A stretch of DNA of 7,242 nucleotides from a virus. Its lineage: Duplodnaviria; Heunggongvirae; Uroviricota; Caudoviricetes. The translations under genes were made by a program, and so were the position numbers. The stretch's first letter is position 1; the number at the start of each line of letters is the position of its first letter. This document shows, one piece after another, positions 190 to 7,242 of this stretch. Location of the stretch: the IMG/VR virus record IMGVR_UViG_2690316028_000008, one strand, 5' to 3'. The notes below the pieces were generated by a model that was not told the DNA's origin, made no database searches, and saw only the letters and a program-made list of their open reading frames with translations.

Positions 190-1977
190 TTATAATTTCG
201 CATATATAGCATTAAACCAAGTTAATGTCTCGCCTTTTGCATCACTTGCAGTGAGCATTTGATAACTCATTTTTCCTGTAGCAAATTTATTTATCTTCTT
301 CTTCGCTTTACTTTCATTATAACGTGTTAAAGCAGATACCTCTGTTGATACATCTGTCGTATCATCTATGGTTATGTTTACACCAAACACCGCCTGAATA
401 GCATCAGGATGTAAATAATTTTCCATTTCCCTTTTTTCAGTCATGAATGCTATGGAACCATCATTTCTAGCATTTACTGACTTACATTCTTTTTCATACT
501 GAGGAGGGATGGCAACATCTCTATCATAGATGTGAACCTCAGGTTTATTTAGAATTTTTAAGTCATTATTATTAACCCAATCTTTAAGAGTATGTCCCCC
601 CATTGGAATGAAAACTATACGCGGATCATTTATCATATCAGGAACATTTGGAACACCTTGGTCGAGATAAATTTTACCGATATTCCTTAAAAAGTTTATA
701 TCATTAGGGCCTTCAACGCATACAAGAACAGATGCCCTACTATCAGGGTATACGCCAAGATCATTCGCTATGTTCTTTAGCACATCATCATTACCATTTT
801 TAACCTCTAAACCATCATCGAGTGTTCGGGTTATATGGCGTAGAGATTCTGTAGGTATCTTTTCCACAAGTGCAGGGACGTGGGTGGTAATCAATACTTG
901 GCATTTATCAGCATTTGCTAATTCTTGAAATGCATCAATAAGAAGTCTTTGATTAGATGGGTGTTGAGATGTTTCAGGTTCTTCAATTGCATAAATAACT
1001 CCTTTATCTGGGAATTCTTTTTGCAATCTTTCTGCTTCCGCTTTAAAAAAACTAATCAGGACTAAACGTCTAACACCACTACCACGTTTATTGATAGCTA
1101 TTCCTCTATCATCTTCCAATGTTAGCTTGAAAATATTTTCCCACTTAGGTTCCACTTTAAACTTTGGGATTAACCCGGCAGCAAGATTAGGAGATATATC
1201 ATGTAAATGTTTAATTGTGTTTTCAGCCACTTCAACTGCATGTTCTTTTACGCTTTCTTTAATGGATTCAAGTTGAATGTCAATCTTCTGCAATGCTGTT
1301 TGAACCGCTGACTTCATAGGATCCTGTACTTCTGATTCTTCATCGGTACTCGGCCTGTCTGCGCGGAATAATGCAAAGTGAGGGAGTTTGTCATATATTT
1401 TTTCACAAATAACCTTGCCCTCCTCAGCATTTAATTTAACGAAGATTTCTTTAAGCTTTAAATCTCCAATTTTCCTGTAAATTTCTTGTCTTAAACTAAC
1501 ATTGGACCTTTTATCAGCTCCATCAACACCAATAGATTCGGCAATTACTTTAAGTTCATCATTTTTTTTAGCAAGTAAAGATTTCGCGCCTTTTGCTGAG
1601 GGAGCCATACATTTAGCTTGAACGCTGCTAGATCCCTTACCTTTTGCAAATACTCTATATATTTCTAGCTTTCCATTACTATTTAATAAATATTCTTCTT
1701 TAAGGTTAGTTATAGATGTGGCATCCAAAACTATAGGTATATCAGCTCCTGAAAAGATACATCCAATTGACACGTCTTCATTTTCCACGCTATCGACACA
1801 TTTATCGGTAGCATCATATTTACATAGTTTATGTTCAAAGAAGACACCAAATGCGTCTAAGATAGTTGTTTTACCAACATCATTACGACCAACTAATGCA
1901 GTTAGTGAGTTAATGTCAATGCTATGTTCTCCATGATAGCCACGAAAGTTCTATAAGATTAGTTTTTCAAGTTTCAT
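190..1977 (-). pseudogene. OLD-family ABC-type ATPase + TOPRIM nuclease (class-1-like, stand-alone), frame interrupted by an in-frame TAG at codon 9
   Basis: The uninterrupted ORF 190..1788 (532 aa in the track, GTG-initiated) continues in the same frame upstream to ATG 1977..1975. That ATG has a GGAG Shine-Dalgarno (1987..1984) 6 nt upstream. My hand translation of 1977..1789 is MKLEKLIL*NFRGYHGEHSIDINSLTALVGRNDVGKTTILDAFGVFFEHKLCKYDATDKCVDS. The NFRG strand and Walker A (GRNDVGKT, 1890..1867) typical of OLD/ABC-type ATPases therefore lie upstream of the track ORF, separated from the ATG by TAG at 1953..1951. Downstream motifs are the ABC-signature-like KRGSGVRRL, Walker B VIYAIEEPE and H-loop ITTH. 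A C-terminal TOPRIM follows: VCVEGPND (Glu codon 714..712), IYDRD and EMENYL. No helicase or other partner gene is adjacent. Confidence 0.8.
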
Positions 1978-2317: not shown

Positions 2318-2980
2318 TTAGTAAAGTTCTCCAGTTCCCTGATCTACACGTTTATAGAAATCAGAAAAATTACATGGGTCAGATATAACTGAGTTTTTAT
2401 CACTACGAAAATCAAATTCTATTTTTTTTATAAGATCAATGGCTGGTATAGTCGAATTTAAAGGGATTTTTTTATAGTTTCTAATTCTGTGATATTCAAT
2501 TGAGTCTAAGTCTACTTCAATCGCTTTATTACCAAAATAATAAAAATGATCTGAAATCAACACGTTATTAGAGCTAGTATCTCGTTCAAGATTTGTCATG
2601 TTAAATGAACCATCAGCATTGCTATGATGAGAATCTTCTTGTATCCATTCATTGTTTTCATTTTGATGGTAGATATTATCGCCCAGAATTTGTACATGAC
2701 TACCATTTCTAGCAGGCTTTTTGAGAGAGAACCTGGTATCCTCCCAATAACCATTGAAACTAATTTTTTCTGAAACTTTCATTAATAGGATACATTTTTT
2801 TTTAGCTGATTTTAAATTGGCTCCACCAACTCCGAGTATCCAATCACCCACTTTAGCTGACTTTCTAATTCCAGGTTTGCATGTTGCCAAGGTACAACTT
2901 CCATGAAATGGATTAGGTGCAAAACCAAAGTCTCTCGTTATTGCATAAACATAAAGGTGTGAGTTGGGATCAATTAGCAT
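2318..2980 (-). CDS. Nmad2-family protein (nucleotide modification associated domain 2), biochemical function unknown
   Basis: 220-aa ORF. ATG 2980 is preceded by GGTGG and overlaps the upstream gene's stop by 7 nt. The N-terminal block YVYAITRDFGFAPNPFHGSCTLATCKPGIRKSAKVGDWILG matches the signature I recall for the Nmad2 family (GFAPNP...CTLA.CKP.IR...GDW). That family was defined by comparative genomics of DNA-modification gene neighbourhoods (Iyer, Aravind and colleagues, 2013). The assignment rests on motif memory plus context. Confidence 0.6.
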   Translation of the reverse strand: MLIDPNSHLYVYAITRDFGFAPNPFHGSCTLATCKPGIRKSAKVGDWILGVGGANLKSAKKKCILLMKVSEKISFNGYWEDTRFSLKKPARNGSHVQILGDNIYHQNENNEWIQEDSHHSNADGSFNMTNLERDTSSNNVLISDHFYYFGNKAIEVDLDSIEYHRIRNYKKIPLNSTIPAIDLIKKIEFDFRSDKNSVISDPCNFSDFYKRVDQGTGELY

Positions 2981-3465
2981 ACGACATTTCCACCTTGAAC
3001 TTTATCACGATCCGTACCATCAGGTTTTTCAAAGGAAGTTTTACCTTCTAGTGCGTTGATAATGGCATCACTTCTCCAGGCCACTATAGAGGTTGCATAC
3101 TTTTCGAGATTCTCTGGTAGTTTTACATCGCCTTTTAACCCATTTTCATATACACCTATGATTGGTTTTCCAAGTTGATGAGCTACTTGAATTTCCCAGT
3201 TTACCCAAGGTCTAGTATGTGTCTCTTTCCCGATAACAACTATAACTTGACTAGCCCACCTCATTTTCATTCTAAGTAAACGTGCAATCGTTCGGTCACT
3301 AAGTTTTTTTTCCTCAACTCGTCGCTGGTTTTCAGGTTTCATTCTAATAGAACTATTGCGTAAATGATAACCTTTTGCTGCAGCTAAACGAGAAACTCCA
3401 TCAACACTCGCGTCGTCTTTATGATGATGGCTAACAAAAACATTTTTCTTAATTTCTTTAACCAT
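2974..3465 (-). CDS. TIR-like domain protein of the ThsB / DUF1863 (MTH538-like) type
   Basis: 163-aa ORF. ATG 3465 has AGGA 7 nt upstream. KNVFVSHHHKDD and QVIVVIGKETHTRPWVNWEIQVAHQLGKPIIGVYEN align well by eye with Bacillus Thoeris ThsB as I recall it (KRVFFSFHYQD ... VTCVLIGSQTFNRRWVRYEIMKSIEKGNKIIGIHIN). The match includes the conserved Glu of the W..(W/Y)EI motif. Confidence 0.75.
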   Translation of the reverse strand: MVKEIKKNVFVSHHHKDDASVDGVSRLAAAKGYHLRNSSIRMKPENQRRVEEKKLSDRTIARLLRMKMRWASQVIVVIGKETHTRPWVNWEIQVAHQLGKPIIGVYENGLKGDVKLPENLEKYATSIVAWRSDAIINALEGKTSFEKPDGTDRDKVQGGNVVC

Positions 3466-3486
3466 TTTTAAATCCTTTGTAATTTG

Positions 3487-4518
3487 CTAATTATAAAATA
3501 ATTCTATATTATTGCTTTGATAATGGTATTTTTGTTTAGGCCTTTTATTGTTAAATTTAGTTCGGCATCTTTTATCTATCTCGCATGCACCACTATTTTC
3601 CATGTCCATTAAGGTGTAAACTCTTTCTTCTTTAGGCAGGAAATGGAATATTTCATCCATGTTCCAATTTTCTCTATACTTTTCAGCGATGTTATTTTGG
3701 TTTATAGTGAACCAGAATAAACACTCTTCGCTATTCATTCCATCTCTATTAGAAAAAATCCAATTAATTCCTCTTTCACAACCAGGACCTGAAATAACAA
3801 AGTTCAATTCTGTAAACGGAAAGTTGGGTATGTATGTCAGATCTATGAAAATTTGATATGCTAGAAAATCCCCAATCCCTGAGAATGATTTTAAATGTTC
3901 AAAAACTTCGAACTGATTTCCTGATGATTTTACACCATTAACGATTTTATCTTGGTTATAATAAACAAATTTTATCATTCTAATTACCATATCATTTTCC
4001 GGTATTCCTTCTATATTTTTTAAGTATTTTCCGAAGTTAAACTTCGGACCTCCTAAAATATAGGCTGCACTAAAAAATACGTAGCCTGGTTTTTTTAATG
4101 ATATGTTTATTGTCTTTTCTCTGATCTTTTCATTGATGTCGCGAATAGTCATTTTTGTGAAATCAAAGGGCGCATCAAGTTCATTTAATGTATCGCTTTT
4201 ATTTATTACTCTAAACAAAAATGAATTGAGTATTTTATTTTCATAAGTTAATTTATTGTTGTTTGTTATATTTTTCAATAACCATTTGGTTTCTTTGTCC
4301 CATGTTCTTTTAGTATTTACAAATTTATAGTTTCTCAATATTTTGTCGTCTGTCCAATATGGCGGAAGGTTAAGTATCTCTTTCTTGTAATATATGGATG
4401 TCCTCTCTCGTTGATGATAAAACCATTCCTTGATAACAGCTTCATTCAAGGTAGGTTTAGCGGTTTTAATTTTCATTTCTCTGACATTACAAAAAAGTTG
4501 ATCGTTTTTACTGTTCAC
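3487..4518 (-). CDS. aGPT-Pplase-like protein (alpha-glutamyl/putrescinyl thymine pyrophosphorylase family; putative DNA base hypermodification protein)
   Basis: 343-aa ORF. The start is either GTG 4518 (AAGG 9 nt upstream, overlapping the kinase stop by 11 nt) or ATG 4476 (residue 15). The block IYYKKEILNLPPYWTDDKILRNYKFVNTKRTWDKETKWL resembles the conserved N-terminal signature I recall for aGPT-Pplase proteins (PWT.D.IL...KF.N..R..D..T). The assignment rests on one motif block plus gene context. Confidence 0.55.
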   Translation of the reverse strand: MNSKNDQLFCNVREMKIKTAKPTLNEAVIKEWFYHQRERTSIYYKKEILNLPPYWTDDKILRNYKFVNTKRTWDKETKWLLKNITNNNKLTYENKILNSFLFRVINKSDTLNELDAPFDFTKMTIRDINEKIREKTINISLKKPGYVFFSAAYILGGPKFNFGKYLKNIEGIPENDMVIRMIKFVYYNQDKIVNGVKSSGNQFEVFEHLKSFSGIGDFLAYQIFIDLTYIPNFPFTELNFVISGPGCERGINWIFSNRDGMNSEECLFWFTINQNNIAEKYRENWNMDEIFHFLPKEERVYTLMDMENSGACEIDKRCRTKFNNKRPKQKYHYQSNNIELFYN

Positions 4519-6147: not shown

Positions 6148-6369
6148 AAACAAAACCTCATGCTATAAAAACATCTTTTTAGTTGATATAGTTTATTGGG
6201 CCTAATCCAGAATTTGGTCCAGCTATGATCTGGACTAACCGGATAGCACGTTTCAATCTCTTGCCTCTAAGAACAGGCTCGAACGTGATAGCCAATTGGC
6301 TTCCCACTTAGCAAGTGAGACCTCGACCCACGCTACCGCCCTCAGTTGCATAGGCACTGCGTTTGTATG

Positions 6370-6408
6370 AACATTTACAAATGTTACTCATGTTATGGGT
6401 TTGGTCAA
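6370..6408 (-). promoter_or_regulatory. Candidate promoter with overlapping palindromic operator upstream of the five-gene operon
   Basis: Minus strand reads TTGACC (6408..6403), 16 nt, TAACAT (6386..6381). The -10 element overlaps an inverted repeat AACATTT-AC-AAATGTT (6370..6385, perfect 7-bp arms). This would give a leader of about 225 nt before ATG 6147. It is the best sigma70-like match I could find by eye in 6154..6450, but it is unverified. Confidence 0.25.
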
Positions 6409-7057
6409 TCTGGCAATAAGATAATTACGAAACTTTAGACTTATTACTTAAGTGGAGGTGGCGCGAGTCGCTAGCGAGTAAGACTGTCTCTTATATGTAC
6501 CAGAAGCACAACTGACGATGCTCCAAAATCATAGTCACCGCTGCGTAGCAAGCTGTGGCCTCTCGCTACTCCCGGGTGCCCCAGTTACAACGTTGTGGGT
6601 TGCATAAGAAATCTGTCCCGCCGGATTAGAGTGGTGGTGGATTACTGACTGTACTCTGCGTTCAATACAGAGACAGCCCGGAACAGGCAGTAATTGATGC
6701 CGGAACGAGACTATTTAAGAACAAACCGCCCCCGGTTAGCAGGATCGTCTCGGCCGGCAGGAAAGCATGCTAACACCTACATGAAGTCCCTGTCAGTGCA
6801 GGCCCCAGACTCAACACCACCAATCTACTTTTCACCACTGCGAAGTAAGGGGCGCTACGCCCGGTTATGCAGGGGCAGTTTTTCTCCTGTGCGCTTTTCG
6901 TTCCTCTATCGGCTTCCTGTTAATCGTTTCCCAACACAACCCGTCCCGCAAGGGTAAATGGCACGCATGCTGCGCCCTTGCAGGACAGAACGATGTCGGG
7001 AAAGCGAACCGTCAGGCGATACGAAGACGAAAATCACACACTGACGGAGAAAAAACG

Positions 7058-7237
7058 ATGACGATTTCCCTGCATACCACCCGGACAAGCGCCCCTAACA
7101 CCGCAGCGGCGACCAGCGTATCCCCGCTGGACCCGTCAGGCTCCTCAAAAACGAAATTTTCTAAAACCAGAACCGACATTTACCGTAAGCGTCGTCTGAG
7201 TACCGTCTGGTCCCGAATCCAGGATCCTGTAACTTAA
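7058..7237 (+). CDS. Hypothetical small protein (59 aa)
   Basis: ATG 7058 is preceded by GGAGA (7046..7050) at 7-nt spacing, followed by 59 codons and TAA 7235..7237. It falls below the 60-aa cut-off of the supplied track. Hand translation: MTISLHTTRTSAPNTAAATSVSPLDPSGSSKTKFSKTRTDIYRKRRLSTVWSRIQDPVT. The N-terminal half is Ser/Thr-rich and the C-terminal half is basic. I recognise no family, and it may not be a real gene. Confidence 0.3.
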   Translation: MTISLHTTRTSAPNTAAATSVSPLDPSGSSKTKFSKTRTDIYRKRRLSTVWSRIQDPVT

Positions 7238-7242
7238 GCACC

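Follow-up and report, generated by a model that had tools for sequence, protein, structure and literature searches.

TIR signalling is common to bacterial, plant and animal immunity, and in type I Thoeris the SLOG domain of ThsA reads isomers of cyclic ADP-ribose. Each new type of Thoeris so far has led to a new signal molecule. In the pairs MilA/MilB and BcmA/BcmB, a CMP hydroxymethylase is combined with an N-glycosidase of hydroxymethyl-CMP. Thymidine hypermodification in phages employs a dUMP hydroxymethylase, a kinase for 5-hydroxymethyldeoxyuridine (5-hmdU) in DNA, termed 5-HMUDK, and aGPT-Pplase (Lee et al. 2018, PMC5889632). Type III Thoeris, which consists of the SLOG protein ThcA and several TIR proteins, is reported to be protective, with a signalling chemistry that is reported as uncharacterised (van den Berg et al. 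2024). Is there any system in which a Thoeris-type TIR works together with nucleotide-modifying enzymes? The stretch of DNA analysed here, 7242 bases of the virus record IMGVR_UViG_2690316028_000008 (hereafter the window), carries a tightly packed minus-strand operon that encodes a thymidylate synthase (TS)-like protein, a deoxynucleoside monophosphate (dNMP) kinase, an HMUDK-like protein, a TIR protein and Nmad2, with the Pfam assignments PF00303, DNMK, PF18723, PF08937 (ThsB_TIR) and PF18753 along its length. We propose, with a probability of about 0.6, that the TIR is a ThsB-type enzyme of a modular, horizontally mobile Thoeris-like anti-phage system, in which TIR and Nmad2 form the constant two-gene core.

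Against PF08937 the TIR protein scores 72.6 bits (E 3.8e-20; cut-off 21.2 bits), and against the ThsB model of PADLOC, PDLC00418, it scores 242 bits over its full length, so the profile searches bear out the ThsB-type identity given in the original prediction; none of the NCBIfam models is matched by the 163-aa sequence. The best solved relatives of the family profile are the B. cereus ThsB structures 6LHY and 9B7D (E 2e-9, 25-29% identity). The original prediction had suggested mutating the Glu of the WVNWEI motif (residues 87-92). This residue, E91, is invariant in 30 aligned homologues and is also kept in the other ThsB TIRs of the loci described below. In 6LHY its counterpart is the Glu of the motif WVRYEI, numbered 87 in the chain and 85 in the native protein, and the E85Q mutation abolishes defence by B. 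cereus ThsB (BcThsB). F10 is aligned to F6 of BcThsB, by sequence alignment with no superposition, and in SaThsB2, an NADase/cyclase TIR, F6 is the Phe that faces the catalytic Glu, E81. According to a published rule, Phe or Ala opposite the catalytic Glu belongs to the NADase type, and Tyr belongs to the deoxy-specific nucleoside deoxyribosyltransferases (NDTs) and DNPH1 as well as to type II ThsB (Shi 2024, Roberts 2024). Read from these alignments, the active site is predicted to be intact with F10 facing E91, and the TIR most likely makes an NAD+-derived signal. Note that the open reading frame (ORF) did not arise by chance but is a real, strongly selected gene: its homologues, each about 162 aa long, number more than 650, and identity is 70-75% among E. 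coli, Nitrospira, Nitrosomonas, Thiocapsa, Cellvibrio and a Firmicute metagenome-assembled genome. In the 30 aligned homologues the residues SHHHKDD (12-18), RNSS (36-39), WVNWE (87-91) and the final Cys163 are invariant.

The TIR fold had also been said to be related to NDT-like N-glycosidases, and the structure model agrees with this. The AlphaFold2 (AF2) model of the TIR (predicted local distance difference test score, pLDDT, 79.8) shows a TIR/flavodoxin-like fold, which Foldseek matches to ThsB proteins at E 1e-5 to 4e-4 and to MilB and BcmB at E 3e-4 to 1e-3; the similarity thus extends to the NDT type. In identity, on the other hand, TIRs reach 20-26% and NDTs 7-13%. Judging from this model, the fold alone would be unable to separate a TIR from an NDT/MilB enzyme, but the sequence does. 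All Pfam matches at E <= 0.1 are to TIR families, and a PDB profile search with the TIR family returned no NDT, MilB or DNPH1 chain at E <= 1. Since hhalign could not align the TIR family with sequences of NDT and Rcl, the Phe/Tyr argument rests on the alignment to ThsB and the published rule. Aravind's group has put TIR, DrHyd/NDT and SLOG into one clade acting on N-glycosidic bonds, in which the TIRs have been NAD+ specialists so far.

How constant is the partnership with Nmad2? The loci compared came from one-genome-per-species contigs (37 loci), exact-protein look-up (further loci) and plasmids (two), and counts were made over 42 of them. Nmad2 lies beside the TIR in every locus that is not cut by a contig end on that side, and a 7-nt overlap of the form NTG-YTR-A is kept in nearly all loci; such an overlap would couple the translation of the two genes. 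The predicted fold of Nmad2 is the PUA-like fold of the modified-base reader type, and its profile has no sequence relatives in PDB. When the E. coli genes are compared with those of other phyla (L012-L032), identity is 66-75% for the TIR and 55-68% for Nmad2, as against 32-37% for the other ThsB TIRs, 24-32% for x-TIR_2/SLOG2 and 24-29% for TS and HMUDK. Across loci, TIR and Nmad2 are 48-75% identical, versus 25-37% for TS, HMUDK, the other TIRs and SLOG. The TIR-Nmad2 core is found in about 40 species of many phyla, carried by integrative conjugative elements (ICEs), plasmids, and genomic islands with integrases. Nmad2 and orthologues of the TIR were found neither in 50,697 phage records nor in IMG/VR; the HMUDK-like and TS-like proteins have relatives in phages.

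The codon of the terminal Cys of the TIR overlaps the Nmad2 start, and the residue is present in nearly all loci examined. The overlapping start codon as the sole cause of this Cys was rejected, for in L037 and L050 the residue persists although the two genes do not overlap. The Sinorhizobium TIR ends in GCAA, with its Cys at position -3. The C-terminal tail of the TIR is modelled by AF2 with low confidence. In NDT enzymes a C-terminal carboxylate from the neighbouring subunit reaches into the active site, and by analogy the tail of the TIR may be functional.

If the TIR makes a signal, which protein reads it? The original prediction held that the TIR has no ThsA-like effector. This is true of the window, where no SIR2, SLOG or Macro proteins occur in the 7242 bases, but the missing receptor is an artefact of the window edge, since SLOG and transmembrane (TM) protein genes lie just past its left end. 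In the source E. coli locus, which extends beyond the window (L001), a cluster of five genes (L001 10986-14889) begins about 1.3 kb past that end on the opposite strand and encodes a protein with two N-terminal TM helices, two ThsB_TIR proteins, an x-TIR_2 protein and a SLOG cluster-2 protein (Table 1). ThsA itself (SIR2_2/STALD) was met neither in the window nor among the scanned unnamed proteins of the L001 cargo region. It is present in relatives: a ThsA gene starts 24-100 nt past Nmad2 in L010 and L048, whose TIRs are 89% and 86% identical, respectively, and another lies in a neighbouring cluster in L047 (TIR 91% identical), the PADLOC ThsA1 scores of these proteins being 665-680 bits. The gene order in L048 and L010 is TS-dNMPK-HMUDK-TIR-Nmad2-ThsA, and no second TIR was detected in the locus. 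The E. coli SLOG2 protein scores 20.3 bits against the ThcA equivalog model (cut-off 110) and the 397-aa x-TIR_2 protein scores 42.1 bits against the ThcB4 equivalog model (cut-off 220), both below threshold, while the neighbours in a Buttiauxella locus (L007) score 249 bits for ThcA and 465 bits for ThcB4.

In most phyla the genes form a co-directional, abutting string of TIR, Nmad2, an optional ThsB TIR, an x-TIR_2-SLOG2 fusion of about 672 aa, MazG_C and a uracil-DNA glycosylase (UDG)-like protein, as seen in Halomonas, Nitrosomonas and 17 other loci. Because x-TIR_2 and SLOG2 are fused within the TIR-Nmad2 operons of other phyla, the two split genes of E. coli belong to the same system. 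The TM protein of L001 is a member of a family with one or two N-terminal TM helices, a helical domain and the motif GLRPHLTKWQAKYRxWY, for which no Pfam or PADLOC match was found. Its members lie in L030 (11763-12416), L045 (10229-10897), L036, L037, L034, L028 and L001. Five loci with usable flanks lack SLOG (L030, L034, L036, L037 and L045), and each of them has a member of the family, as do three SLOG loci; since it accompanies the module wherever SLOG is missing from usable flanks, it is a candidate effector or receptor.

Over the 42 loci, a SLOG protein occurs in 31, HMUDK in 23, TS in 18, MazG_C in 18, dNMP kinase in 16, a UDG-like protein in 13, the TM protein family in 8 (including the 5 without SLOG) and a dCTP-deaminase-like protein in 4. 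Loci with neither SLOG nor TM protein are short fragments, are cut by contig ends, or are L020, which has a lipase and a TIR_2 protein. No locus with usable flanks is without a nucleotide-handling gene. The module takes the form TS-dNMPK-HMUDK-TIR-Nmad2 in Enterobacterales, Vibrionaceae and Aeromonas, with variable neighbours. For example, ThcA, ThcB4, SLOG2-patatin and further TIRs stand by the module in L007, with homologous genes in L004-L008 and L011; in Salmonella (L047) it is accompanied by ThsA plus SLOG cluster-3/TIR_2 genes; and in Aeromonas (L045) the TM protein is the sole neighbour type. Altogether ThcA/ThcB4, ThsA or SLOG2-patatin adjoin the module in L047, L043, L044, L046 and L004-L011. 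The orders vary, such as xTIR-SLOG-HMUDK-MazG_C-TIR-Nmad2 and HMUDK-TS-TIR-Nmad2-xTIR-SLOG, and because the genes are interleaved in so many ways they are taken as one system and not as chance neighbours. At some loci a methyltransferase (MTase)-HNH protein or a restriction endonuclease adjoins the module. On a Sinorhizobium plasmid (L051, 9744-13395) the pair is found with a 533-aa TS, an O-methyltransferase of the TylF/MycF/NovP type and HMUDK, and on a Gloeothece plasmid (L050, 114-4660) patatin, HMUDK and MazG lie upstream of it.

The TS gene of the window is separated from the TIR by two genes of the same operon, in which adjacent genes overlap by 4, 11 and 7 nt and in one case are 21 nt apart. 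The best PDB match of the TS-like protein is MilA (5B6D, E 2e-14; canonical TS 1e-6), and the catalytic Cys is retained. Substrate preference of MilA is set by Lys133, Ala176 and Asp186. At these positions the TS-like protein has Arg, Ser and Asn, the pattern of deoxy-/uracil-specific enzymes (TS and dUMP hydroxymethylase), and for this reason its predicted substrate is dUMP and it is predicted to be a dUMP 5-(hydroxy)methylase. Compared with canonical TS, it also carries a C-terminal extension of about 100 aa. The HMUDK_hel protein has full-length homologues in 399 phage records, at about 31% identity, and its catalytic half, which is missing, might be encoded by the P-loop kinase gene immediately upstream. 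The annotation of its homologues in ViI-like phages is inconsistent, being aGPT-Pplase clade 1 in one record and a 5-hmdU DNA kinase helical domain according to Pfam.

Table 1. Features of the operon in the window and of the gene cluster past its left end (L001 positions refer to the extended E. coli locus).
Feature	Position	Strand	Evidence or remark
TS-fold enzyme, 363 aa	5062..6153	-	PF00303 E 1e-16; PHROG thymidylate synthase 263 bits
P-loop dNMP kinase-like protein, 185 aa	4508..5065	-	Pfam DNMK E 3e-10; PHROG deoxynucleoside monophosphate kinase E 3e-30; 4-nt overlap with TS gene
HMUDK_hel protein, 343 aa, homologue of phage 5-hmdU DNA kinases	3487..4518	-	PF18723 E 4e-53; 11-nt overlap with kinase gene
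Ribosome-binding site AGGA of TIR gene	3473..3476	-	sequence reading; 7 nt ahead of ATG 3465-3463
ThsB-family TIR enzyme, 163 aa	2974..3465	-	Pfam, PADLOC, homologue alignment, PDB profile search, AF2 model
F10 of TIR	codon 3438-3436	-	key residue
E91 of TIR, in WxxxE	codon 3195-3193	-	key residue
Cys163 of TIR, terminal residue	codon 2979-2977	-	key residue
7-nt stop/start overlap ATGCTAA of TIR and Nmad2	2974..2980	-	sequence reading
Nmad2, 220 aa, invariant TIR partner	2318..2980	-	predicted PUA-like (YTH/EVE/ASCH) fold
L001 cluster: 242-aa protein, two N-terminal TM helices	L001 10986-11714		
L001 cluster: two ThsB_TIR proteins, 203 and 170 aa			
L001 cluster: x-TIR_2 protein, 397 aa			TIR_2 domain
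L001 cluster: SLOG cluster-2 protein, 272 aa			PF18163 E 1e-76

Where does the operon come from? Its GC content is 29-37%, while it is about 50% at the right end of the window (~6250-7242), where the ArdC gene of an ICE backbone begins at 7058. Given this jump and the start of the backbone, the operon is low-GC cargo of foreign origin. Twelve complete E. coli chromosomes match the window at 99.9% identity, and the TIR-Nmad2 pair is found in 16 of 5426 complete E. coli genomes, chromosomal in every case. In E. coli strain 3347558 the module is the cargo of an ICE, adjoined by ArdC, MobC, a coupling protein and a VirB type IV secretion system. Rfam and tRNA scans gave no RNA genes in the window, and the promoter scan gave no more promoters in it than the shuffled expectation; the sole terminator-like site of relevance is after an ATPase gene. 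This gene (OLD/AriA-like, AAA_15; window 190-1977, minus strand) lies between the two TIR modules. It has an in-frame TAG at codon 9 (1951-1953; MKLEKLIL*NFRGY), which is AAG in Phytobacter; in Atlantibacter (L003) there is a frameshift within the P-loop, and in Phytobacter (L002) the gene is broken into 174 and 371 aa. These disruptions in three genomes are independent of each other. In a diverged E. coli variant of the ICE (92.6% identical), both modules are kept and a restriction endonuclease stands in the position of the ATPase. The OLD-like ATPase was therefore rejected as a component of the system, since each of the three genomes has its own kind of disruption and the variant ICE has another gene in its place.

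From the observed family membership, active-site residues, invariant TIR-Nmad2 coupling and gene-neighbourhood statistics, we infer which substrate and signal are used and what Nmad2 and the nucleotide enzymes do. One flank of the core holds variable nucleotide-handling enzymes, which are the dUMP-type TS-like protein, dNMP kinase and HMUDK-like protein in the window and MazG_C and the UDG-like protein in most other phyla; a dCTP-deaminase-like protein or an O-methyltransferase is sometimes found there too. The opposite flank holds variable output proteins, which are the TM protein, two ThsB TIRs, x-TIR_2 and SLOG cluster-2 proteins in E. coli, and elsewhere the TIR_2-SLOG2 fusion, ThsA (SIR2-SLOG), ThcA/ThcB4, SLOG2-patatin or the TM protein alone. 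Upon a cue, E91 of the TIR would break the N-glycosidic bond in a substrate that contains ribose, with NAD+ as the likeliest one; the ADP-ribosyl part would become a diffusible signal to be read by the SLOG (or TM) proteins; and these would then trigger NAD+ depletion or damage to membranes or lipids. Nmad2 probably binds a modified base or nucleotide that is made or exposed by the accessory enzymes, and it may gate the TIR or supply a co-substrate.

A simple ThsB model does not explain why the TIR is so extremely conserved together with Nmad2 and why nucleotide-handling enzymes are obligatory. The two observations leave room for a new signal or a priming modification. For instance, an activated 5-substituted pyrimidine, such as 5-phosphomethyl-dUMP from the TS-like protein, the kinase and HMUDK, might be joined to ADP-ribose by TIR-Nmad2, or might alkylate the conserved C-terminal Cys of the TIR. 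The conjugate would be a new class of TIR signal resembling histidine-ADP-ribose (His-ADPR), and the alkylation, a nucleobase-protein priming step, would resemble the deazaguanylation of type IV CBASS. This extension is quite unlikely; if true, it would be a Thoeris-type signal or activation step made from a modified DNA base.

Could the TIR act on modified nucleotides instead of NAD+? In the manner of MilB/BcmB it would be an N-glycosidase or transglycosylase whose substrate, a modified pyrimidine nucleotide, comes from the TS-like protein and the kinases, and would free a modified base or sugar phosphate as signal, toxin or building block. The original prediction raised this as an alternative from the pairing of TS and TIR. 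The two do share an operon, the TS-like protein does resemble MilA, and the TIR model matches NDT and MilB folds; moreover, there are three glycosidase-type folds among these operons, and the tailoring enzymes are varied, including the O-methyltransferase in Sinorhizobium. However, the conserved unit turned out to be TIR-Nmad2, with TS missing in 24 of the 42 loci. As a conserved logic the MilA/MilB analogy is unlikely, since the TS residues predict the deoxy substrate dUMP while the Phe of the TIR is typical of enzymes with ribose (2'-OH) substrates; the TIR does not have the Tyr typical of deoxy-specific NDT and DNPH1. It shows no sequence-level membership of the NDT/MilB families, antibiotic-biosynthesis genes are absent nearby, canonical ThsA comes directly after Nmad2 in L010 and L048, and the TIRs characterised to date act on NAD+. 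The fold match and the kinship to MilA thus stand, but a MilB-like TIR is unlikely.

A different use of the nucleotide enzymes would be hypermodification of DNA. The operon would then make 5-hmdU-type nucleotides and modify the element's own DNA in a restriction-like way (compare phage dU-hmt/5-HMUDK and Dpd), with the TIR, SLOG and UDG-like proteins as base-exchange enzymes or glycosylases and Nmad2 as the reader of the mark. The combination of TS-like protein, dNMP kinase and HMUDK homologue indeed equals the opening steps of phage thymidine hypermodification, modified DNA is read by PUA-like domains in type IV restriction enzymes, and an MTase-HNH protein or restriction endonuclease adjoins the module at some loci. 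The Pfam names Nmad2, MazG_C and HMUDK_hel derive from a survey of DNA modification systems, and they show that Aravind's group has catalogued the domains in settings of nucleotide modification and conflict. But neither aGPT-Pplase nor another finishing transferase is present in the operon, TS is missing in over half of the loci, TIR and Nmad2 are absent from the phage and viral collections, and the effectors (ThsA, patatin, TIR_2, TM protein) are those typical of abortive-infection signalling, which makes this explanation very unlikely. The other possibility is that the neighbours are a coincidence: TIR-Nmad2 would be self-contained, Nmad2 sensing modified phage nucleic acid and the TIR depleting NAD+, and would just happen to lie in the defence islands that also hold Thoeris systems and nucleotide-metabolism genes. 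The pair is invariant while its surroundings vary, defence genes do cluster in islands, and PUA-like sensors of modified nucleotides are known in other defence systems (bioRxiv 10.64898/2026.01.15.699771). Yet pair and flanking genes alternate in many orders within tight co-directional strings of overlapping or near-abutting ORFs, every usable-flank locus has a nucleotide-handling gene and almost all have a SLOG or TM protein, and both modules travel together in diverged E. coli variants of the ICE. A chance neighbourhood is therefore improbable, and the Thoeris-like system with a TIR-Nmad2 core is retained as the best explanation.

Why does it matter? A widespread TIR-Nmad2 core is connected both with canonical Thoeris effectors and with enzymes for building or trimming modified pyrimidine nucleotides. 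The operons of six genes with ThsA as the last one (L048 and L010) offer a compact testable system for the contribution of the nucleotide module, be it a new signal, a trigger or a self-priming modification. Burroughs is said to have discussed TIR-SLOG systems in 2015. In the searchable literature we found no link of Thoeris to TS-like, HMUDK, MazG_C or Nmad2 genes, and no relevant papers on Nmad2, on ThcA/ThcB, or on Thoeris together with thymidylate synthase; PF18753, PF18723 and PF18163 are unmentioned in the searched supplements of the systematic TIR survey.

Compared with known systems, the locus shares features with several. Type IV CBASS with its deazaguanylation (Wassarman 2025) and PUA-Cal-HAD with its sensing of m6-dAMP likewise place nucleotide- or base-modifying enzymes or PUA-like readers within abortive-infection signalling; the likeness is an analogy only, and the enzyme families are different. 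With phage hypermodification it has in common a TS-family enzyme, a dNMP kinase and an HMUDK homologue, the last about 31% identical to proteins of ViI-like phages. Unlike that pathway, however, the module is not in phages, has no aGPT-Pplase, pyridoxal phosphate (PLP) enzyme or radical-SAM enzyme, and has TIR, Nmad2 and SLOG added. As in MilA/MilB and BcmA/BcmB, a TS-fold enzyme and a protein of the TIR/NDT/SLOG clade are encoded in one operon, but the TS residues predict dUMP and not CMP, TS accompanies the TIR in just 18 of the 42 loci, and the setting is a mobile defence island and not an antibiotic cluster. With type III Thoeris (NF058525/NF058526) it shares the combination of a small SLOG protein and more than one TIR protein. 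In Buttiauxella, true ThcA and ThcB4 adjoin the TS-kinase-HMUDK-TIR-Nmad2 module, and SLOG cluster-3 and TIR_2 proteins that are size-matched or cluster with those of L007 stand by the module in Erwinia, Brenneria, Citrobacter, Serratia, Salmonella, Vibrio and Photobacterium, although the proteins of the E. coli locus fall under the ThcA and ThcB4 cut-offs. From type I Thoeris the system differs in that the TIR is always coupled to Nmad2 (7-nt overlap) and always found with nucleotide-handling enzymes, is 70-75% identical across phyla and has a conserved Cys at or near its C-terminus, and in that the E. coli locus has split x-TIR_2 and SLOG cluster-2 genes and a TM protein instead of ThsA. With the type I ThsB of B. 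cereus MSX-D12, on the other hand, the TIR shares the Pfam family, the Phe/Glu pair and WxxxE, and in L010 and L048 ThsA itself is encoded in the same string of genes.

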